Source: Trichodelitschia bisporula (taxonomy: Eukaryota). From it: a stretch of DNA of 64,000 nucleotides. This document shows, piece by piece, positions 1 through 15,106 of this stretch (its first letter is position 1; each line of letters begins with the position of its first letter). Made by a program: the position numbers and the translations under genes. The notes beneath the pieces were generated by a model. The model had not been told where the DNA came from. It did no database searches and was given only the letters and a program-made list of their open reading frames with translations. The stretch is taken from the NCBI GenBank assembly GCA_010356995.1, contig ML996702.1:186001-250000 (forward strand), in the 5' to 3' direction.

Positions 1-82
1 GCCCTTGACGGTCCGTCGTCTCGTGCTTTTTCTAAAAGTTACCGGAACTAGTCGTTCTGACGTCTCAGACTCCGACGCAAGG

Positions 83-1338
83 ATGGCCTCAATGTCATCC
101 GTCCCGCGTCCGAAGCACATCACGGACCGGTACAAGATCATTGGTTTCATTAGTAGTGGAACCTATGGCCGAGTGTACAAGGCCAAGGGCAAAAATGGCC
201 ACGTCGGCGAATTTGCGATCAAAAAGTGAGTTCCGATTTTCGTACTCTGCTCCATCTCACGTTCCTCCCCAGGTTTAAGCCCGACAAGGAGGGCGAGGTC
301 GGCTACACCGGCATCTCGCAGTCGGCGATCCGTGAAATGGCCCTCTGCACAGAACTCTCGCACCCGAACGTGGTGCACACTGTCGAGATCATCCTCGAGA
401 ACAAGTGCATTTACATCGTATTCGAGTACGCCGAGCACGACCTACTCCAGATCATTCACCACCATTCGCAGCCGAACCGGGCGGCCATCCCCGCGCGGAG
501 CATCAAGTCCATCATGTACCAGCTGCTCCACGGCTTGCTGTATTTGCACCGGAACTGGGTCATGCACCGTGATCTGAAGCCGGCCAACATCATGGTCACC
601 AGCAAGGGCGAAGTCAAAATTGGCGACTTGGGCCTTGCACGCCTCTTCCAACGCCCGCTGAACACGCTTTTCACGGGTGACAAGGTGGTCGTGACCATCT
701 GGTATCGCGCGCCAGAGTTGCTCCTCGGTGCTCGCCACTACACGCCTGCTATCGACCTTTGGGCGGTGGGCTGCATATTCGCGGAGCTGCTCTCACTGCG
801 ACCGATCTTCAAGGGTGAGGAGGCCAAGATGGATAACAAAAAGTCGGTCCCGTTCCAGCGCAACCAGATGCAGAAGATTGCCGAGATCCTAGGACTACCA
901 ACCAAGGATCACTGGCCGCTGCTGAGCAGCATGCCTGAGTACGCACAGCTGGCGAACCTGTCGGCCGGCAACTCGCGCGTCGCCAGCCCCCAGACTCTGC
1001 ACAAGTGGTACTGGAACATTGTACACATGAATAAGTACCCGAGCGATCCTGCCAGCATGACGCCAGGCAAAGAGGGGTTGGCACTGCTCAAAGGACTGCT
1101 TGAGTACGATCCGCAGAAGCGCCTGACCGCGGAACAGGCACTGCAGCACCCCTACTTTACCGATGATGACAAGCCAGGCGAAAACTGCTTCGAGGGCAGC
1201 GGTATCGAGTATCCGCTACGCCGTGTGAGCCAGGAGGACAACGATATTCGCACCTCAAGTCTCCCAGGGACCAAGCGCAGCGGACTTCCGGACGATAGCT
1301 ATGGAGGCCGTCCTGCGAAACGCCTCAAGGAGGCTTAG
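83..1338 (+). CDS. SSN3: Mediator-associated cyclin-dependent kinase (CDK8/Srb10)
   Basis: join(83..225,273..1338) with a 47-nt GT-AG intron giving AIKK|FKPDKEG. Kinase motifs: [17 protein letters not shown]8-type helix [23 protein letters not shown] in place of [30 protein letters not shown]. Confidence 0.97.
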
Positions 1339-1475
1339 GGGCTCTACTACTATGGCGTGGCGCAGTGATAGTGGCTTGCTCGCTGTTTCGGGCTTAGCTG
1401 CGGCGCGGCCCGCGGAGCAACCCGTCGACCGGCTGGACTACAAAGCGACGCGCGCGCCAACATCATCGGATCACC

Positions 1476-2596
1476 ATGGCCAACACAACGTCGTCCACAA
1501 TGCGCGCCTGGATGCAGTCTGCCAGGGGCAGCATATTTGAGAAGGCTGTCCTTGCTGACATTCCGCTGCCTGGTGAGCCCACTGGCTCAGACATTCTCGT
1601 CAAAATCTCGCATGCCGCGCTAAACCCGGTTGATTTGGAGCTCGCACGTGTTATTCCCACCTTCTGGCCATTCCCGCATAATCGCGGCATCAGCCTGGAC
1701 TTCGCCGGTCGTGTCGAGCGTGCTGGGCCACTCGTCCCCCCGGAGCTGGGCCCTGGCGTCTCAGTCTGTGCCGCACTCGGTGTGGCGCAGGTGTGGGCTG
1801 GCAAGGGCGCTCTCGCGGAGTACATCGTTGTGCCTTGCAATCTGGTTGCGGTTACGCCTCAATCTCTGACGTCCGCCGTTGCCGCAGGACTCGGCATCAC
1901 CGGCCAAACCGTTGCATTGATGATGCGCGAGGCGAAGGTCAAGAGTGGCGACCGCGTGCTCGTGAACGGCGCGAGTGGCGGTGTCGGGTCACTATTGGTA
2001 CAGGTTCTGAAGGGCAAGGGCGCACATGTCACGGGTATCTGCTCGGCGGCGAATTTTCCCCTGGTGCAGCGGCTGGGTGCCGACGAAGTAAGTTCTGGCG
2101 TGACTTTGCTCCGCCGCTGACCAGGGAGGTTGTCGATTACACCAGCGCACCGGTAGCTGAGCAGCTGGCCGGGGTCGAACAGAACTTCGACTACATTTTC
2201 GACACCATGCGCAACCAAGCCCTGTTTGAAGGCTCGCCCGCTTATCTCAAGCCGAGCGGGCTGTACCTCAACATCGGATCGCGCGGCAGCTCTTTCTGGC
2301 AGATGAGACTACTCGACCTGAAGAATGACTGGCTGCCGGTGTTCCTGGGGGGCACACCACGCAAATGGAAGACGTTAGCTCACCGTCCGAGCGGGGATTT
2401 TCAGCGGATGGTCACAGACTGGGTCAACGCAGGTCTCATAACCGATGTGCCTATCGACTCGGAGGTTCCGATGGCAGAGGCGCTCAAGGTACGGCCCCCA
2501 CACGAGCCTCCGCAACTCTACTGACCACAACAGGGCTTCGAGCGACTTGAGACTCGCCACGCGAAGGGCAAGGTCATCATTCGGATCCAGGATTGA
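1476..2596 (+). CDS. Zinc-independent medium-chain reductase (NADPH:quinone oxidoreductase / enoyl reductase-like)
   Basis: join(1476..2087,2129..2488,2534..2596). Motifs AALNPVD, LDFAGRV, GALAEY, Rossmann VLVNGASGGVG, LGADE|VVDY, C-terminal RHAKGKVII. No catalytic-zinc GHE motif. Confidence 0.88.
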
Positions 2597-3182: not shown

Positions 3183-3275
3183 ATACGCAAGTTCTTCAAT
3201 CTGACTTCAAGTTAACACCATCCTGCTCAATACACAAGTTCTTCAATCTGACTCCAAATTGACACCATCCTACTC
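3183..3275. repeat. 47-bp-period tandem duplication immediately upstream of the ZNFX1-like ATG
   Basis: Copies at 3183-3228 and 3230-3275 (atacRcaagttcttcaatctgactYcaaRttRacaccatcctRctc) with 5 mismatches, all transitions. Confidence 0.9.
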
Positions 3276-3280
3276 GCGTC

Positions 3281-6200
3281 ATGGCTCCGGGTGCTCGGCG
3301 AGGTTCTAACAATCGTGGGCGTGGTGGTAGTTCGCGTGGTGGTGGTCGAGGCGGCGGGCAGAGCGGTGGCTGGAGAGCGCAGAACACCCTGCCTTGCCGT
3401 CATGGGGAGAATTGCACATATGGTGCACGCTGCAAGTTTTCTCACGACTCGCAAGACAATGGCCGAAGCACCCAGAGATCCGGGGTCTGTAACAATGTTC
3501 TCCAGGGAAGGGAATGCTCCTTTGGAGCCAGGTGCAAATACTCGCACGACGTTCAAGGTGGCTCGGTACGGCCTCCGCGTCCTCCTCGTCCTGAGCCAAC
3601 GGCCGAGCAAGAAGCGGCTAAGGATGCATACCATGCGTGGAAGCGGCTTATCAAAGCACCACCGACGAGTATGGACCTGAGCCGGACCAAAAGGGTGTGG
3701 GACGGAGCCCTCGATATCCTCAACGCCGACAACCGCGATTCGCACCAGAAGCTCCCTAGGGATCTGGATTTGGACGAGACTTATGGCCATGACTATATCC
3801 TGGCCGTCCTGACGATGCACCCGACGGCTTTCTCGCCCCTGAATGGTGTGGGATTCATGGATATCGTACATCCCTTCCTTCTGGTTATCACTCACACCGA
3901 ACTGATCGACTCCTTGTCGCTGGATACCTATGTTGGCGCCATCTACAACTTCATCAGCGGCCCCCACGGCTCTCGGGCCATTCCCTTTTTCAAGCGCGTC
4001 GCCTTGAGCTTGAAGGACCACCTGGCGTTGTATGCGGACAAGATGATCGGTCCCTTGTGCACTGCGCTCTGTGTGACGCTGAGGCGGGAACCCCGTACAT
4101 CGTTTCAGGAGGAGCTGTCAGAAGTCCTTGACATCCTGGATGGCGTACTCGTGTCGGTGACGCCGGAGACTAAAAGCATTGCCGGGAATGTGCTCGAACA
4201 GTTACATGCGATCGCGCGGCGTGCTCAATCTCTGCTTGGACGCGAGGAAGAACTGGAGGTCGGTGATATCGCTCCCACGGCTTCCACATATCCACGCAAC
4301 CACGTGGTCCCCGGTGGGCGGCACGACAACGATTTTGCCGATATCACGCAGACGGCAATTTTTCCCAGCGCGGACGAAATCCGATACCGCGGCCTGAAAG
4401 ACCTGCCTTCAACGGATCGTGACGAAAGTCATCATCTCAGCGACCCTGCGGAGAGGCACATTGATACGCTCTTTAGACTGCTACGTCATGACATTTTTGG
4501 CGAGCTGAAAGACGCCTTGAACATTCTTCTGCACGATGCGGACGCAGATCCTCGGGTTTTCGAATCCCAGAACATAAGCCTGGGCAACATCCGGGCCCAG
4601 GCATACACTGGGGCGCGCGTTGCGTTCATCTCCCCAGAGCTGAGGCAGGGCTTCGACATATCCATTTCTTTCACTGCTCCCAAGGCGATTCGCAAGCTTA
4701 AACCGGCTGAGCGGCAGCAATGGTGGGAGCATCCTCGGCGCCTGTCAGACGGGACACTGCTCTGTTTTCTTGTTCACATCAACGGCAAGAGCGAACTGAC
4801 ATTTCTTACGGCTGGGCAGAAGAGCACTGACCCGAACCAACGGCACTCGCTGATGGCTCCTAAACCGGTAATCGTTGCACGGTCGCTCTTTCCTAGCCAG
4901 TTCAGCGTCGAGCTCCTCGTACAACTCAGTTGCTCTCCCGCATCGGGGCTTCTCATCGACTTCTCTGGTGTACTTCCTGCCACCTTCGTTCCCGTATTGG
5001 AGACCTTGCAGCGGATTCAGAAAGAGAGCCGCTTGTCTTTTCGCTCCTGGGTCTTACCCGAACGCGTCCAATCTGGCACTCATGTCGAGATTCTCGACGT
5101 CCCTCCACCGGTCTATACCCGCAACGCGAGGTTTGCCTTTTCACTCGCTCCCATTCTGAAGGACTCTGGCGATGAGCTCTTCATCACGCGTGATGCGCGG
5201 GTCGACGACGAAGCACTTGTCAGCCAGATTGTGAATCGTACGGGACTCGACATGGGTCAGGCTAAGGCACTCATTGCCGCACTCGTTCGTGAATTTACCT
5301 TCATCCAAGGTCCGCCGGGATGTGGCAAGACTCACTTAGGCGTACAGCTCATGCAGGTTCTGCTGCACGCTGCACGCAAGGGCAATCTTGGACCCATTAT
5401 TGTCGTGTAAGTTTTTGTGCCACTCTCGTTCCACATCTGACGAGCGGCAGATGTTATACCAACCACGCATTGGACCAGTTTTTAGAACATCTCATCCAGA
5501 TCGGCATCACCAAAATCATAAGAATGGGTGGACAGAGCCGGTCGCCGGAACTGGAGGGCAAGAACCTTCGCGTTGTCACGAAGGCAGAAGGTAGCACTGG
5601 GTTTGAACGTTTTCAGGTTGCAAAAATCTTTGAGGAGATTCAAGAGCTCTCCAAGGACGTCGAAGTCACACTCAAACGTCTTAGCGCCTTAAAACGGAAA
5701 CCTCAGTGGTCAAATCTCAGCCACCACCTCCGCCGCCACCATTCAAAGATCTACAAGCAATTTGTGCCGGGTGACACTGATTGGACGCTCGTTGGCGATG
5801 CATTCGACATTTGGAAATTGGTCAAAAATTTACCGAAATATACTGACGGAGACCATGCTCCGATTGAGTCTGTCCTGGTGTTGGCCGAGGGAAACGTGAA
5901 CGAGGTGTCCCCTCTTGATCGGGTCCGTCTCGTCCAGTACTGGGTAGACGAGAGCTGCAAAGAAAAGCGAGACCATGTTTACGAGTGCGTTCGCGAGGCC
6001 GAGCAGCTTCGCCGACAGTTAGACGACGTTCGAAGCGAAGCTGACAAGCGGATTCTCGCATCAGCGGACGTGATTGGAGTCACCACGACAGGCCTCGCAA
6101 AGCGGATCGCGGTACTGCAGCATGTCAAAGCAAAGGTTGTGCTTTGCGAAGAGGCTGCGGAAGTGATGGAGTAAGTATTTCTCCTTTTGTATCTCACGCT

Positions 6201-9200
6201 GACCCGGCAGACCACATATGGTGTCGGCCTTTCTCCCGAGCGTCGAGCATTTCATACAGATTGGCGACCACCAGCAGCTGCGTCCACAGATCAATAACTA
6301 TTCGCTATCGCTAGAAAGCGACACAGGGGTGCGGTACCAGCTTGACCGCAGCCAGTTTGAGCGGCTCTGCAAGGGCGAGCGGGACCGGCCTCTTGTTCCC
6401 GTGGCTCAGCTCAACGTTCAGCGCCGGATGCGGCCTGAGATTTCGACTTTAATTCGAGAGACGGTGTACAAGCGCCTTCAGGATCATGCGAGTACGCAGG
6501 ATCTTCCTAACGTGGTGGGTATGCGCAAAAACGTCTTTTGGCTTGATCACAGCAACCTGGAGGGCGAGCAGGATGACCAGCGGTCCCACTGCAATGTCTG
6601 GGAGGTTGAAATGGTCAAAGCCCTCGTGCTCCACATCGTTCGCCAGGGCGCGTATAAAAGCCAGGACATCGCGGTCCTTACGCCATATACGGGCCAGCTT
6701 CAAAAATTGCGTGCTGCCATGAAGGCCGAATTTGAGGTTGTGCTGAGCGACCGGGACCAGGATACGCTTCTCCGAGACGGATTCGATCCTGAGGCCTCCG
6801 ATGAGGACGGCCCAAAGCGCCCGCTGGAGAAGAAGCGCATGGTCGAGCTGCTGCGTCTTGCAACCGTGGTCAGTTATTCCGTTCTTGGATTTATTTGCTC
6901 CACTAACGCTGGCAGGACAACTTTCAAGGCGAGGAGGCGAAGCTGGTCATCGTGTCACTTGTGCGAAGCAACAGGACCCGCAGAGTTGGATTCCTGCGGA
7001 CTGAGAACCGCATCAACGTCCTTCTGAGCCGCGCGCAGCATGGGCTCTATCTCATCGGGAACTCCGACACATACGCCAACGTGCCGATGTGGGCCCGTGT
7101 TCTCGGAATGCTGAGGGCGACAGACTCCGTTTCGACGGCTCTAGGCCTTTGCTGTCCTCGACACCCAGACACGGAGATCCAGGTCTCTCAGTCAGAAGAT
7201 TTTCGACGCAAAAGCCCGGAAGGGGGCTGCGAGTTGAGTTGCGACCGGCGCCTCTCGTGTGGCCATCAGTGCGAAGCGAGGTGTCATTCTGATTATCTCC
7301 ACCAGGTGTTCTCATGTCCCCAGCCGTGTCAAAGGCTACACACGCCATGTAACCACCCTTGCCAGAAGGCGACTTGTGGAGAGGACTGCGGGTCTTGCCA
7401 GATCAAAATCGACAATGTGCAGCTGCCCTGCGGCCACGATGTGGACGGCGTGGCTTGTCACCGCACCCAAAAGCTGGACGCAATTTTCTGCCCTACTCTC
7501 GTTAACAAAACCGTCCCGCGCTGCAGTCACGTTATAAAAATCGCCTGCTCGAAGAGTGTTAGCGCCCCGAGCTTCAAGTGCCCCACGCCGTGTAGTGCGG
7601 TGCTCGAATGTGGGCATCCATGTCCCGGTACCTGCGACGACTGCCGACAGGTGTCGGACGCTGAAGTCATCTTCAAGCATGCTAGCTGCCCCAAAATTTG
7701 CGGCAGAAGCTTGCCGAGGTGCAACCACAGTTGCCAAAGTACCTGCCATGCCGCTGAAAGCAAAGACTGCGGCCTTTGTCACGCTCCGTGCGAGGTATGT
7801 TTTAGAATTAGGCCTCTCCGCTAAGTCTTTCGAGCTTCTCGCAGAGTGAACCCCTTTGCCTTTCAACCGCTAACTATCATAGGTTCGATGCAAGCACTCG
7901 AAATGTTCGTTGAAGTGCCATGAGCCGTGCGCGCCTTGCATTGAGAAGAGATGCAGCTGGCAGTGCGTGCATAAAGGTGCTTGTACACTCCCCTGCGGTG
8001 CACCCTGCAATCGGCTGCCATGTCAAGAGCGCTGCGCAGAAAACCTCGCATGCGGCCATCGCTGTCCGACTGTATGTGGAGAGGACTGTCCTGAGGGATA
8101 CTGCCAGGCCTGCTCTGACAAGCTGGATGCCCGTGTCGACATTCTCGAGATGAAGACGTACGGTGAAATTGACCTCGACGAAACGCCCATTGTGGTCCTA
8201 GGATGTGGCCACTTCTTTACCTTCGAGACGCTCGATGGTCTTGTCGGAATGCGCGACGTTTACGAAGTCAACGCTCACGGCGAGTACATCCGGATTCTTG
8301 AATCACCGGCCCTCGCGGATTCCATTCCTCGCTGCCCCGATTGCCGAAGCCCATTCCGACAGTTTGCAACTACGCGGTACAACCGGGTGGTCAACCGGGC
8401 GGTGATTGACGAAATGACGAAGCGCTTCCTCATTAGCTCGCGCGCGGAGCACGCCGAGTTGGAGGCTAAGGTTGACGCATTGGAGGAAAGCTTTGCAAAG
8501 GCCCAGTTGGCACTCAAGGCCGCGACCCCAATGCCCTTGCTTGGACGGAAAGGTCGCGCCGCACCTTCAACGGACACTGTGGTTATGTTCAACAGAACTT
8601 ACGTCGAGGCCACCCCTCTTGTTAACTCTGTTGATTGGTTCTGTGCCAAAGTCGAGGCTAAAAATGAACCGGTCAGAAAACTCCACGACGCGATTGTTCA
8701 AGCGGCGAGAGAGTCGCAGCCGCTCGATGAGAAGGTGGCTGGAATGAAACTCGCGAAATCTCTCTACGCCGCTTCTCGCGAGAGCCGCATCATCATTGGT
8801 AGCCAGCTACTGCGGGCTCGGATAAGATTCACCGCTCTTGCTCATCAACTCGAGCTTGCTCGAATCCGGAGATCTTGGCCTGCTGATATCGGCTTGAATG
8901 TGAAGTCAGGCTCAAATCCTGCAAAGACGGCCCCTAATATCTTTGCCGCTTGCGAAAAGCTGATCGGTGTATCCGGAAGGGAACGACTTCCAAAGTTCGC
9001 TGTGGAGGCTACATTGCATTATGCACAGTATGCTCATCTCTTACGCTCTTACCGCAATACGGCACCGTCCATAGAAAGCGACAAATTGACGAAAAAGGCG
9101 AAAGGGTTTGTCGAGCAAGCCATCGCGCTGTGCGACCGTGGTTTTCAGAATGCCGACAAGTTGCGGGAAGCTCTGCAGGTGGTAGCGGAGTCTCTAAACA

Positions 9201-9497
9201 GTGAGTGGTATGAGGAGGTAACGGCAGAAGAGATTGCGGCCATCAAGAACGCTATGGTGACTGGGAGGGGTGGCCTTCCAACACACTCGGGACACTGGTA
9301 CGAATGTCAGAATGGCCATGCGGCAAGTTGCCTTTTGACTTTTCTGGTCTCCGCTAATGTACCTCCAGTTTGCGGTAGGAGAATGTGGGATGCCCATGGA
9401 ACTGGCGCGGTGTCCTGAGTGCGGTGCCCAAGTGGGTGGTCAGCGTCATAATCCCGTCGCGGGAGTTGCCAGGGCGCAGTACATGGAGGACGACTAG
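3281..9497 (+). CDS. ZNFX1: ZNFX1-like protein: RGG + 2 CCCH fingers, Upf1-like SF1 RNA helicase, NF-X1 zinc-finger array, RING-like segment, C-terminal RZ finger
   Basis: join(3281..5406,5451..6170,6211..6868,6916..7794,7883..9322,9369..9497). Splicing restores the SF1 motifs QGPPGCGKT, VVCYTNHALDQF, CEEAAEVMEPH, IGDHQQLRP, SQFERL, QRRMRPEIS, ATVDNFQGEE and NRINVLLSRAQHGLY. Also PGGRHDND, repeated CGHxC..CH units, and the terminal GHWYECQNGHAFAVGECGMPMELARCPECGAQVGG. The symbol denotes a homolog of the animal gene. Confidence 0.93.
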
Positions 9498-11409
9498 GTT
9501 ATGGGTATTGCGAGAGGAACGAAGTCCAGTATCTTGTCAATGGACCATGAGACCCACAAGTACCCGATGAAGAATAATTATGGGAAATGCCACGTGATTG
9601 TGTCACGGCCGTCAACGACGGCGCTCTGATTCAACATGTTTTCCTTCCGGTGATCAGCTTTCCTCACTTCTTTATACACAGGGACGCCATCATCATCGCA
9701 ACAGAGCCTCTTGGACACTTGGTATTGCTTTCACAGATCGATCAGACTGCTTGAGGTACTTTCGACCAGGTAGGGAGTTTAATCAATGCATCGCTTATGC
9801 ATACCTGCTTCTCTTACTCTACTGCTTCCCCAAGAGCGCTTGAGCCCTACCCCGTTGAGCTGTCGAGGTGGGTATGGGTCTTAACTCCCCGTTGTCATAG
9901 GCATGCAGCCTTCGATTGAGATGGATTGACGATCAAATCACGGGGCATGACCCGCACAATTTATGTCCTCTTCACATCGTTGTTTTCATCATCCTCCGTC
10001 GCGGCTGAGATGGCGAGGAAATCGATGGGAAGCCTTACAATTTGACAGCCACACATCGTGCCGGCACTCTACGATTTTCACGATGCATCCGCTGCTCTCA
10101 AACCAAGGCCATATAGTTACAGTTGTAATTACAAGACTGCTCTGTAGGTCATGGCCGACGATGTCGAGCATTGCCAATCGCGAATCGCAGCGTTTCGATA
10201 TGGAATCAAACGGGCTAAGCGGAAGCGGAATAAGGGCACCCCGTGATGTCGGCGTGGGTGCGGAAGGTGAACCTTCACTTTCTTTCATCTCTTGAAGAGT
10301 AGTAAAGAACTCGTTTATACTGTCTACGAAGGAGAGTTCAATGCTGGTACATTCATCATCTTATGCCCTGTGTTGCTCCGGACAAGGCCCCTCAGCCTTC
10401 CCATGAATGTGGCGGTGCAGTGGCTAGTGAAATCTTCGCGACGATGATATCCTCTTTCGGCTTGAAGCCTCAAGGCTCAAAAACAACGTCCATGATGGCC
10501 CTTGCACTCCACATCTTCACAATCCGCGCTATCATTATCAGAGATCTACGGTCGGCATCGACGGCGCGAACGCGTCAAACTGGGCGTGATGACGATCCAA
10601 TTCTCGTCCATCACAACAAGCTCTCCTCTTTTCCCCTTTCAGCTTCAAGACAGGGATCAGCTGGACGACACAACCGTATCCCTCAAGACCGTCCCAAACC
10701 ATCATTCATGCGAATGAGCTGAAGTCGCGTCCCGCAACGCAACATCTCACACCCGCACACCAGTCACATCCTTCCCCTCAAGCACTCGTCGCCCGCACCG
10801 GCGCCTGAGACGTGATGACCTAACACCGCGCGCAGGTGACCAGTAACAGCAAATCTGACGCCCGCCATCACAAAACCCGACAACTCAAATCCAACCGCAA
10901 AGTGACAAAAACCACCCAGCCGCAGCCGCGCAAACGCTCACTTGTGGCGCCCCTATGATGCGCAGAGCCCAGCCGTGGCGCCCCACTGATCAGCAGCCCC
11001 CGCCTCCCTACGCCGTGGTTGGCCAGGCTGCGAGCCCACGAAGTCGGCTCGCGAGGTTGCTATTAAGATGGTCGTGAAAACGGTCCTCGCGAAGCGACCC
11101 CGCCGTCCTGGAACGGTCATTTTTAACGCAGCGATGAGGCGGGGACCGCGTTGCACCGCGTAGGCGAAGGCGTGGGCTGCGGTTCCAGGAGCCGGGCACG
11201 CGGCACCGCTTACAGGCCCGCGGTGGCAGTGGCTGCGGGGCGCAAACTGCACGGCCGATCGGGTTGCGCGCGATGTGCGTCCGTTCCGTGGGGATGGGGG
11301 CCTGCACTTGGCTGGCGTGTTGGCGGGCGGGCCGGCTGGGACGTATATGTGGGTTAGGCCCCGCAAAGGTAGGAGTGGGTGTGCGTTGCGTTCTTGGTTT
11401 GGATTCGAG

Positions 11410-12465
11410 ATGCGTACCCCGCCGCCGGAAGTCATCGCGAGGTGGCCGAGGCCGAATTATGAGGACCCTGAGACGGTGGGGCCGGAGTTGACGATGGTGG
11501 GAGCGGTGTTTTTGGCGGCGGCGGCGGTGAGCGTTGCGTTGAGGGTGTGGACGAGGTTGAGGGTTACGAAGTGGTTTGGGTGGGATGATGCGTTGGTGTG
11601 CTTGGGTCTGATATTCAGCATTGGAGTCAATGTTGTCTTCAACCTGGGCGTATCGCAGTACAAATGGGCTCGACACATCTGGGATATCCCGCCCATGAAC
11701 ACTCAAGGTCAGTTAAAACGAAGCAGCGAGCGAACTGAACTGATGATACTAGCCCCCATGAAGCTCTCCTTCGCGCTCAAGCTCCTCTTTCTCCTCGCCT
11801 CGTCCTCAATCCACCTCTCCCTCCTCGCATTCTACTACCGCCTCTTCGGCAAGCATCTCTTTACCCGCCTCCGCTACCTCCTCCACGCAACCGTCCTCGC
11901 CCTCCTCTCCATGACCATAATCTTCTTCTTCCTCTTCATCTTCCAATGCCACCCCATAAGCGCATACTGGACCTTTGCTCCCGCCTCCTGCCTCGACGAA
12001 GAAGCCATCGTCAGCGTCTACGGCATCGTCAAAACCCTCTTCGACTTCCTCATAACCTCCCTCCCCATCCCCGTCATCCTCCGCCTCGAAATGCCCCCCT
12101 GGCGCCGCTACGCCGTCGCCCTTCTCCTCGGCCTCGGCTACCTCGTCACCATCGCCGGCATCGTGCGCACATATTACACCTGGCAGGCACTCCACACACC
12201 GGACTACGACCTGAGTTGGTACCAAGGGATCAGCGTCATCGCCAGCGCCGTCGAAAATGACCTCGCCATCATAACCGCCTGTGTGCCTACCATCCGGCCC
12301 CTCGTTCGCAAGGCCCTACACCCGCTGCTCAGCTCGCTGTCGCCGCGCGAGCATATGAAATCGTCCGCCGAGGCTGTGTTTCTCGAGGGCCCGATTCGTG
12401 CCTCAGAGCGTATGGCCCCAAGGCGGGGGAGCTTGCCGGACGAGGATGGCGATGCGGCGGTGTGA
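11410..12465 (+). CDS. PTH11-like (fungal rhodopsin-domain) integral membrane protein without CFEM
   Basis: join(11410..11707,11753..12465). N-terminus MRTPPPEVIARWPRPNYEDPET; motifs LRVWTR..FGWDD, RHIWDIP, FQCHPISAYW, DFLITSLPIP, AIITACVPTIRP; about 7 hydrophobic helices. Confidence 0.88.
   Translation: MRTPPPEVIARWPRPNYEDPETVGPELTMVGAVFLAAAAVSVALRVWTRLRVTKWFGWDDALVCLGLIFSIGVNVVFNLGVSQYKWARHIWDIPPMNTQGQLKRSSERTELMILAPMKLSFALKLLFLLASSSIHLSLLAFYYRLFGKHLFTRLRYLLHATVLALLSMTIIFFFLFIFQCHPISAYWTFAPASCLDEEAIVSVYGIVKTLFDFLITSLPIPVILRLEMPPWRRYAVALLLGLGYLVTIAGIVRTYYTWQALHTPDYDLSWYQGISVIASAVENDLAIITACVPTIRPLVRKALHPLLSSLSPREHMKSSAEAVFLEGPIRASERMAPRRGSLPDEDGDAAV

Positions 12466-13082: not shown

Positions 13083-15106
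<2,024 letters not shown>

Follow-up and report, generated by a model that had tools for sequence, protein, structure and literature searches.

Human ZNFX1 has been described as an RNA-activated helicase that is also a two-module E3 ubiquitin ligase (10.1101/2025.10.14.682297, 10.1101/2025.09.05.674436, PMC13710534), and its RNA sensing and unusual ligase were linked only in 2025-2026. Its NFX1 fingers act as a rigid structural stalk (10.1101/2025.10.14.682297), and a formerly unannotated E2-binding domain has been called Miz-like in one preprint (10.1101/2025.10.14.682297) and Z-RING in another (10.1101/2025.09.05.674436); a long helical bundle lies between this domain and the terminal RZ finger. 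Among the relatives of the helicase, Hrr1 of Schizosaccharomyces pombe, SAD-3 of Neurospora crassa and RnhA of Mucor have 999, 1160 and 1231 amino acids, respectively (PMC5384783), and Hrr1, SAD-3 and ZNFX-1 of Caenorhabditis elegans act in small-RNA pathways (10.1101/220111, PMC5384783). The zinc-finger region of the worm and mammalian proteins is reported as absent from the fungal orthologues considered in that comparison (Hrr1/SAD-3; 10.1101/220111), an NF-X1 finger being predicted in RnhA (PMC5384783, 10.1101/220111). N. crassa carries two further paralogues, NCU09357 and NCU05861, which fall outside the SAD-3/Hrr1 cluster (PMC5384783). Here, we describe a ZNFX1-type gene in a window of 64,000 nucleotides of the dothideomycete Trichodelitschia bisporula (GenBank assembly GCA_010356995.1, contig ML996702.1, positions 186,001 to 250,000 of the forward strand; all coordinates below are those of the window). 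A first-pass annotation, made from the letters alone, had proposed this gene as a candidate RNA sensor and E3 ligase, and its background statements on ZNFX1, Hrr1, ZNFX-1 and the RNF213 RZ finger agree with the papers cited in this text.

The gene encodes a full-length member of the ZNFX1 family which, by analogy with the human enzyme, would combine an RNA-activated helicase with a two-module E3 ligase, a reading to which we assign a probability of about 0.8. It is carried by an intact and transcribed reading frame, by a helicase core that matches human ZNFX1 far better than any other known structure, by an RZ finger with all its zinc-binding and catalytic residues, and by a conserved domain resembling the human E2-binding domain. 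The features discussed are collected in Table 1.

A transcribed gene of six exons

On the + strand between 3263 and 9497, six consecutive stop-to-stop frames can be joined at five short introns, giving an open frame of 1983 codons with its start codon at 3281 and its stop codon at 9495-9497, in agreement with the five introns and the protein of about 1980 residues that had been predicted before. Transcript contigs were available from two public runs (X1 and X2) of one sample and one study. All five predicted introns are missing from a single X1 contig of 4988 nucleotides that reaches position 9609, and four of the five are missing from X2 contigs. The runs were labelled as RNA merely as a guess; as the contigs lack the introns, they must derive from spliced RNA, and spliced transcripts of the gene are therefore found in both runs. 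The donors of introns 1 to 5 read, in order, GTAAGT, GTAAGT, GTCAGT, GTATGT and GCAAGT, and because the contigs permit only a GG..CA placement of intron 5 or, shifted by one base, GC..AG, this is a true GC-AG intron. The gene is thus real and transcribed, and the five-intron model is right. A pseudogene was considered and rejected on account of the uninterrupted frame, the spliced transcript and the full set of catalytic residues.

The protein has already been deposited and named, and it belongs to a large fungal family. The deposited sequence (P0001) is identical to our 1983-residue product except for the absence of residues 13-59, the interval 3315-3455 having been spliced out as a sixth intron. 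The donor of this interval (GTGGGC) is off-consensus, and its 141 nucleotides compare with 40-88 nucleotides in the five confirmed introns. In addition, two X1 contigs (3190-3390 and 3386-4356) cross both of its ends unspliced, with no joint at that place. These observations favour the longer product over the deposited splice, although the contigs are still compatible with a rare isoform. The interval encodes most of an RG-rich tail and a CCCH finger recognised by Pfam (finger 1 below), and the public gene model is here corrected in that both are coding sequence.

Helicase core, finger array and ligase modules

Pfam matched AAA_11 (3.8e-25) and AAA_12 (3.3e-39) in the whole deposited protein, together with the RZ-type finger discussed below, and helicase motifs I, Ia, II, III, IV, V and VI were all located, so that the superfamily 1 (SF1) core is as complete as the first-pass annotation had described it; a search of NCBIfam returned sub-threshold helicase matches only. 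Motif II reads EEAA instead of DExx and aligns to EE1007AA of the human protein, and the pattern EEA[AGS] is present in 118 of 120 homologues; judging from these sequences, this Walker B motif is a signature of ZNFX1 and no defect. The closest PDB entry to the single protein is human ZNFX1 (9q9z_A, E 6.3e-103), the next being UPF1 (7.5e-29), and a family profile built from 43 sequences gave 1.6e-165 and 3e-37 for the same two proteins. Native human numbering was obtained by subtracting 87 from the 9q9z_A chain index, which was checked on F1210, R1216, R1223 and EE1007AA. In this alignment, the fungal protein keeps the catalytic E1007, the RNA-stacking Y1043, L1051, the RNA-binding residues F1210 and R1216, and R1223 of motif VI.

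The similarity continues beyond the helicase, as a third aligned stretch runs from its end through the first fingers of 9q9z_A (2.3e-44 with the single protein, 6.7e-58 with the profile). The first fingers of the array align residue by residue with human zinc fingers, and the zinc ligands C1264 and C1292, which are mutated in patients, are conserved. The array region (335 residues) holds 51 Cys, 18 His and four to five C-x-H-x-C-x3-C cores, for which shuffling gave a mean of 0.38 and at least four cores in 14 of 2000 shuffles.

At the C-terminus, Pfam recognised ZnF_RZ-type (PF20173) at 1.1e-21 in the whole protein (76.7 bits against a cutoff of 27) and at 5e-15 in exon 6 alone. The spacing C-x3-H-x6-C-x8-C-x2-C-x8-H is that of C1849, H1853, C1860, C1869, C1872 and H1881 in human ZNFX1 (10.1101/2025.10.14.682297), with all six zinc-binding and catalytic positions occupied. 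The terminal RZ finger named earlier is therefore present, and its kinship with RNF213 is likewise borne out: RNF213 chains match it at 1.6e-7 with the protein, 6.5e-11 with the family profile and 8.3e-5 with exon 6 alone, and exon 6 aligns to the RNF213 finger without gaps over GEC, C-x2-C and the final H.

Intron 5, with its GCAAGT donor, falls between the zinc-binding His and the catalytic Cys of this finger. The complete six-residue motif was found in 81 of 120 homologues, and 12 showed its first half only; nine of these diverge or end after N-G-H-P, which is the position of intron 5, and several of the nine continue with the residues that a read-through GT donor would encode. This pattern suggests that 9 of the 120 homologue models are mis-predicted at a conserved RZ intron and are not truly devoid of the finger.

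The other putative ligase module lies between the finger array and the RZ finger. The human Z-RING is a cross-brace domain with a distal zinc site only (C1591, H1593, C1619 and C1622), in which F1575 contacts the E2 and Q1623 occupies the linchpin position directly after the last Cys, where Arg is reported to be optimal (10.1101/2025.09.05.674436). In the fungal protein, the C and H of a C-x-H motif are invariant in a 43-row alignment and a C-P-x-C motif is at least 90% conserved, and no Cys or His stands where the second ligands of a proximal site would be expected, so that only the distal site has four ligands. The residue after the last Cys is Q, K or R in the homologues, R in T. bisporula and Q in human. 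An AlphaFold model of residues 1517-1663 has a predicted local distance difference test score (pLDDT) of 85.8, and every Foldseek row shown for it is a RING or U-box domain (E 0.07-0.6), including APC11, RNF4, RNF20, TRIM proteins, LubX, RNF8, RBX1 and BIRC7. The VIA structural aligner ranked APC11 first (Z 5.6, root-mean-square deviation 4.1 over 88 residues) and the RING of MYCBP2 third (Z 4.4), the remaining rows being mostly matches to the trailing helix; MYCBP2 is also the structural comparison chosen for the human Z-RING (10.1101/2025.09.05.674436). A C-x2-C pair just upstream may be the last NFX1 finger or a partial proximal site. The modelled fold is consistent with a Miz/Z-RING assignment without being strong evidence for it, and the conserved ligand pattern carries most weight. 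What had first been called a degenerate RING-like stretch (8102-8344) is therefore real and conserved, but its RING label gives way to a better one: by its ligands, it is probably the counterpart of the human Miz/Z-RING domain, on which the E2 docks. Between this domain and the RZ finger, an AlphaFold model of the C-terminal 522 residues shows helices at model positions 166-459, with pLDDT mostly 75-96; Foldseek returned only generic helical-repeat and 14-3-3 noise for this model (E 0.017 or worse).

Several observations weigh against the reading of the gene as a full-length ZNFX1. Within the helicase, human Y450, an RNA-stacking residue of domain 1B, is D or E in the fungal family; 232 residues separate motifs Ia and II, compared with 350 in human, so that the 1C insertion falls short of the human one by about 118 residues; and the profile alignment leaves a gap at the human segment that holds the acidic auto-inhibitory plug helix (native 828-836). 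Pfam zf-NF-X1 had no match at E ≤ 1 in the whole deposited protein, so that, of the NF-X1 array announced earlier, the dense Cys/His array and its alignment to human ZNFX1 stand and the Pfam assignment does not. Taken singly, the fold matches of the Miz-like domain are weak (Foldseek E 0.07 at best; VIA Z 5.6 at best, which is in the common range of that tool), no SP-RING entry is among the Foldseek or VIA rows shown, and the loop from the H to the C-x2-C measures 40 residues as opposed to 25 in human. The alignment to human ZNFX1 covers 9q9z_A, which stops at native residue 1364, ahead of this domain and of F1575. For the N-terminal region, at the position of the human ARM domain, a look-up of residues 95-400 in the ESM Atlas gave no usable match. 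The T. bisporula protein sits on a long branch (0.77) of the family tree, all the transcript evidence comes from one sample, and the functions assigned to the fungal members all come from homology.

N-terminal head, fungal family and neighbouring genes

The first 36 residues contain five RG and three RGG motifs, as expected from the RGG-rich tail reported at first, and an RG-rich start (at least three RG within the first 120 residues) is shared by 71 of 120 homologues. Two CCCH fingers follow. The spacings given for them in the first-pass annotation hold and Pfam recognises both, finger 2 as zf-CCCH (1.2e-8), zf-CCCH_4 (1.8e-9, residues 69-90) and zf-CCCH_DUS3L (1.1e-10), but the pair does not represent the head of the family. 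Finger 1 is absent from 30 of 30 aligned full-length homologues, to which finger 2 is common, and an N-terminal CCCH pattern occurs in 96 of 120 homologues and two such patterns in 2 of 120. From this comparison, finger 1 is an extra copy and one CCCH finger is the norm. The cores of the two fingers are equal at 9 of 12 residues. At the DNA level, identity falls to about 67% over 43 nucleotides, which argues against a recent tandem duplication as the source of finger 1 and points to an old duplication or to convergence on the family consensus. Against the PDB, the family profile also matched tristetraprolin-type fingers (1m9o, 4.3e-5; 1rgo, 1.1e-4).

Between the fingers and the helicase, a conserved region (residues 100-350) agrees in size and position with the human ARM domain, which serves in dimerisation and in the binding of structured RNA; the family profile aligns from about its position 236 to residue 237 onward of human ZNFX1, with low accuracy. 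A complex prediction with two copies of residues 100-350 scored 0.00 (mark 0.32), the fold itself being uncertain, and so speaks neither for nor against ARM-like self-association.

Exon 1 matches at least 143 long proteins, and the named ones among the 120 listed all belong to Pezizomycotina. The E3 module alone matches 1698 protein clusters at E ≤ 0.001, of which 327 remain at E ≤ 1e-30. Many representatives of 380-520 residues (within P0123-P0263) match the E3 module only, from query positions 36-90 of exon 5 onward; these are more likely exon-level calls of open reading frames on unspliced fungal contigs than stand-alone E3 proteins. In the other three of the 12 homologues with half of the RZ motif (P0066, P0068 and P0115), the finger shows small changes: one has three residues inserted ahead of the catalytic Cys, one lacks a zinc Cys and one lacks the general-base His. 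These could be model errors or real inactivation.

In a FastTree reconstruction of 85 named members, the distribution of taxonomic classes calls for 10 changes of label, compared with a possible minimum of 4; for example, Penicillium adjoins Fusarium, and Cordycipitaceae branch among dothideomycetes. This quick tree was rooted on two RZ-less Neurospora-group rows and is no test of transfer; it suggests old paralogues with patchy retention across the fungal family. The first-pass annotation had described the family as known in fungi with little functional work devoted to it, and the literature gives the same picture: a search that did not extend to subscription journals and supplements turned up no functional work on the full-length type of fungi, none is apparent for NCU09357 or NCU05861, and no paper found there links NFX1-type zinc finger-containing proteins with mycoviruses. 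Among the papers listed for ZNFX1 and fungi, a single one concerns a fungal gene, with an entry in an expression table: a Magnaporthe homologue, MGG_11779, appears there as down-regulated under DNA-binding transcription factor activity (PMC11091397).

Upstream of the gene, a kinase piece matches yeast SSN3 (7kpv_A, E 9.2e-119), as the earlier placement beside SSN3 implied, and two overlapping frames between them are probably one intron-containing dehydrogenase gene. The neighbours look functionally unrelated, and neither of the two downstream genes, encoding a rhodopsin-domain protein and a tRNA synthetase, has an obvious link to RNA surveillance.

Table 1. Features of the ZNFX1-type gene and its neighbours in the T. 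bisporula window.
Feature	Residues	Positions	Strand	Basis or remark
ZNFX1-type gene, coding region (ATG to stop)	1-1983	3281..9497	+	product 1983 amino acids
Exons (six)		3281-5406, 5451-6170, 6211-6868, 6916-7794, 7883-9322, 9369-9497	+	
Introns 1-5		5407-5450, 6171-6210, 6869-6915, 7795-7882, 9323-9368	+	skipped in transcript contigs
Minimum transcript extent		3190..9609	+	X1 contigs 3190-3390, 3386-4356, 4357-9609 (spliced)
Sixth intron of deposited model		3315..3455	+	141 nucleotides, GTGGGC...AG; read here as coding
RG/RGG-rich tail	6-31	3296..3373	+	motif count
CCCH finger 1, C-x5-C-x5-C-x3-H	C39-H55	3395..3445	+	Pfam zf-CCCH_2 4e-6 (residues 38-55)
CCCH finger 2, C-x8-C-x5-C-x3-H	C70-H89	3488..3547	+	Pfam matches; conserved in family
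Conserved N-terminal region	100-350	3578..4330	+	family conservation; position of human ARM domain
UPF1-like SF1 helicase core	656-1218	5246..7065	+	spans introns 1-3; Pfam, motifs, alignment
Walker A		5309-5332	+	motif location
Walker B, EEAA	942-945	6148-6159	+	motif location
NFX1-type Cys/His array	1226-1538	7087..8113	+	spans intron 4; motif count, alignment
Miz/Z-RING-like single-zinc cross-brace domain (probable)	1544-1625	8129..8374	+	ligand pattern, AlphaFold model
Putative zinc ligands	C1569, H1571, C1612, C1615	8204-8206, 8210-8212, 8333-8335, 8342-8344	+	
Linchpin position	R1616	8345-8347	+	directly after C1615
Helical bundle (predicted)	1627-1920	8378..9259	+	AlphaFold model
RZ finger	1929-1975	9284..9470	+	split by intron 5 (9323-9368); Pfam ZnF_RZ-type
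RZ zinc ligands	C1936, H1940, C1956, C1959		+	human-spacing match
Putative RZ nucleophile	C1947	9384-9386	+	human-spacing match
Putative RZ general base	H1968	9447-9449	+	human-spacing match
SSN3/CDK8-type kinase gene piece		157-1338	+	Pfam Pkinase 8.8e-59; 7kpv_A
Zinc-dependent dehydrogenase-like, two overlapping frames		1398-2524	+	ADH_N, ADH_zinc_N_2 matches
Fungal rhodopsin-domain membrane protein		11164-12465	+	PF20684, 2.7e-48; downstream
Class I Glu/Gln-tRNA synthetase		13083-14549	-	PF00749, 1.2e-54; downstream

Possible roles and comparison with described systems

The coupling of RNA recognition to ubiquitylation, as proposed for this gene at first, is a sound inference by homology. 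If the fungal protein worked as the human enzyme does, single-stranded RNA would bind in the helicase groove and switch on the ATPase and the E3 activity, and an E2 of the UBC4/5 type loaded with ubiquitin would dock on the Miz/Z-RING-like domain. Ubiquitin could then pass directly to a substrate, or first to C1947 of the RZ finger, with H1968 as general base, and from there to the target, the outcome being self-ubiquitylated assemblies that trap RNA. An Arg at the linchpin could raise the efficiency of direct transfer above that of the human protein. From what is known of such domains, the tristetraprolin-type CCCH finger or fingers and the RG tail might provide extra contacts to single-stranded RNA and perhaps favour condensate formation, and the two fingers of T. 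bisporula would allow a bivalent contact; that this head adds RNA specificity, as suggested earlier, is a hypothesis.

The biological role is a separate question from the family assignment. Cytoplasmic surveillance of foreign or aberrant RNA is the role towards which we lean, in our estimate at somewhat less than even odds. An unlikely alternative places the protein chiefly in small-RNA silencing, in the manner of Hrr1, SAD-3, RnhA and ZNFX-1: its helicase would partner an RNA-dependent RNA polymerase and Argonaute, and the E3 module would be secondary. Relatives of the same helicase act in RNA interference, meiotic silencing, epimutation and the inheritance of RNA interference (PMC5384783, 10.1101/220111), and a 2025 preprint notes that, by sequence, the human 1C insertion is most closely related to Hrr1. 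However, Hrr1, SAD-3 and RnhA are much shorter, the Hrr1/SAD-3 group is described as having no zinc-finger region, the two additional N. crassa paralogues lie apart from that cluster, which suggests a separate branch for the full-length type and a role of its own, and the intact residues of the RZ finger and the Miz-like domain argue that ubiquitylation matters.

It is similarly doubtful that the protein regulates the cell's own mRNAs with no part in defence, its CCCH head recruiting AU-rich or marked transcripts whose stability, translation or granule storage would be controlled by the helicase-E3. The match to tristetraprolin-type fingers would fit such a regulator, as would the expression of the gene in a sample for which no virus challenge is stated, and human ZNFX1 is reported to act on the stability of host mRNAs. 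Nevertheless, one CCCH finger by itself, as is normal in the family, seldom suffices for sequence-specific binding, and the excess of class-label changes in the tree indicates paralogy and patchy retention, less typical of a core housekeeping regulator. Finally, the automatic annotation of the fungal homologues implies a DNA-binding transcription factor of the NF-X1 type, and both the deposited name and the tabulation of MGG_11779 (PMC11091397) point that way; we consider this highly improbable, since the protein is organised around an RNA helicase that resembles ZNFX1 and UPF1 most closely, the NFX1 fingers of human ZNFX1 are described as a structural stalk, and Pfam found no R3H or other domain specific to NFX1/FAP1.

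Returning to RNA surveillance, a more specific form of it can be put forward as a speculation that is rather unlikely to hold in full: in filamentous ascomycetes, full-length ZNFX1 would be a cell-autonomous defence that traps mycoviral or other foreign RNA in ubiquitin-coated particles without interferon, with the CCCH/RG head selecting AU-rich single-stranded RNA. Were this so, the scattered, paralogue-rich tree would reflect a turnover like that of immune genes, the trapping of RNA by a helicase-E3 would be older than the divergence of animals from fungi, and the silencing helicases Hrr1 and SAD-3 would be trimmed-down offshoots. The fungal gene keeps every catalytic element of the two-module human enzyme, and homologues exist in tractable moulds (Neurospora, Botrytis, Fusarium and Penicillium), so that the ancestral job of the enzyme can be addressed; Neurospora, which by the published account also carries the shorter Hrr1/SAD-3 helicases, offers a clean comparison of both types.

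With regard to described systems, the gene is an expected member of a large known family, with a fungal-specific head. Its modules come in the order of human ZNFX1, beginning with an N-terminal region and an SF1 helicase with EEAA and continuing through an NFX1 stalk, a single-zinc RING/U-box-like domain and a helical bundle to the RZ finger. Walker A is at a similar distance from the N-terminus (K683 in the fungal protein, K625 in human). It differs in its RG-rich tail and CCCH finger or fingers, no CCCH match being reported for the human chain, in the smaller 1C insertion, in which no counterpart of the plug helix aligns, and in the absence of Y450, in a Miz-like loop that is 15 residues longer, and in Arg instead of Gln after the last ligand. 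In addition, the fungal protein stands in no interferon context.

The silencing proteins Hrr1, SAD-3 and RnhA are also fungal and share a related helicase core, but they are much shorter than the T. bisporula protein, with its 1983 residues and all three C-terminal modules; from their length, we infer that they lack the Miz-like and RZ modules as well. As Hrr1 and SAD-3 are shorter and reportedly have no zinc-finger region, the full-length gene stands for another branch of the fungal proteins, one that is nearer to human ZNFX1 in its architecture. C. elegans ZNFX-1, which marks RNAs in germ granules, resembles the fungal protein in having an SF1 helicase and a zinc-finger domain, but is described as lacking the RZ finger (10.1101/2025.10.14.682297) that the fungal protein keeps.

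More distant systems share single parts only. RNF213 is alike in the catalytic part of its RZ finger (GEC...C-x2-C...H), whereas its dynein-like AAA core and canonical RING have no counterpart here. UPF1, SMUBP-2 and SEN1 have the same helicase fold and motifs (7.5e-29 to 1e-17), but score far lower than ZNFX1, carry a DExx Walker B and lack the NFX1 stalk and the E3 module. The transcription factors NFX1 and FAP1 combine NFX1 fingers with an R3H domain and have no helicase, an architecture that differs from that of the fungal protein, which has a helicase and in which no R3H was detected by Pfam. The SP-RING/Miz (Siz/PIAS), U-box and RING domains are small and of the cross-brace type like the fungal one, with weak fold matches to it. 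Finally, tristetraprolin-type fingers have the C-x8-C-x5-C-x3-H spacing of finger 2, but tristetraprolin carries them as a tandem pair, whereas the fungal family normally has one and the T. bisporula protein has two, the first with a C-x5 spacing.

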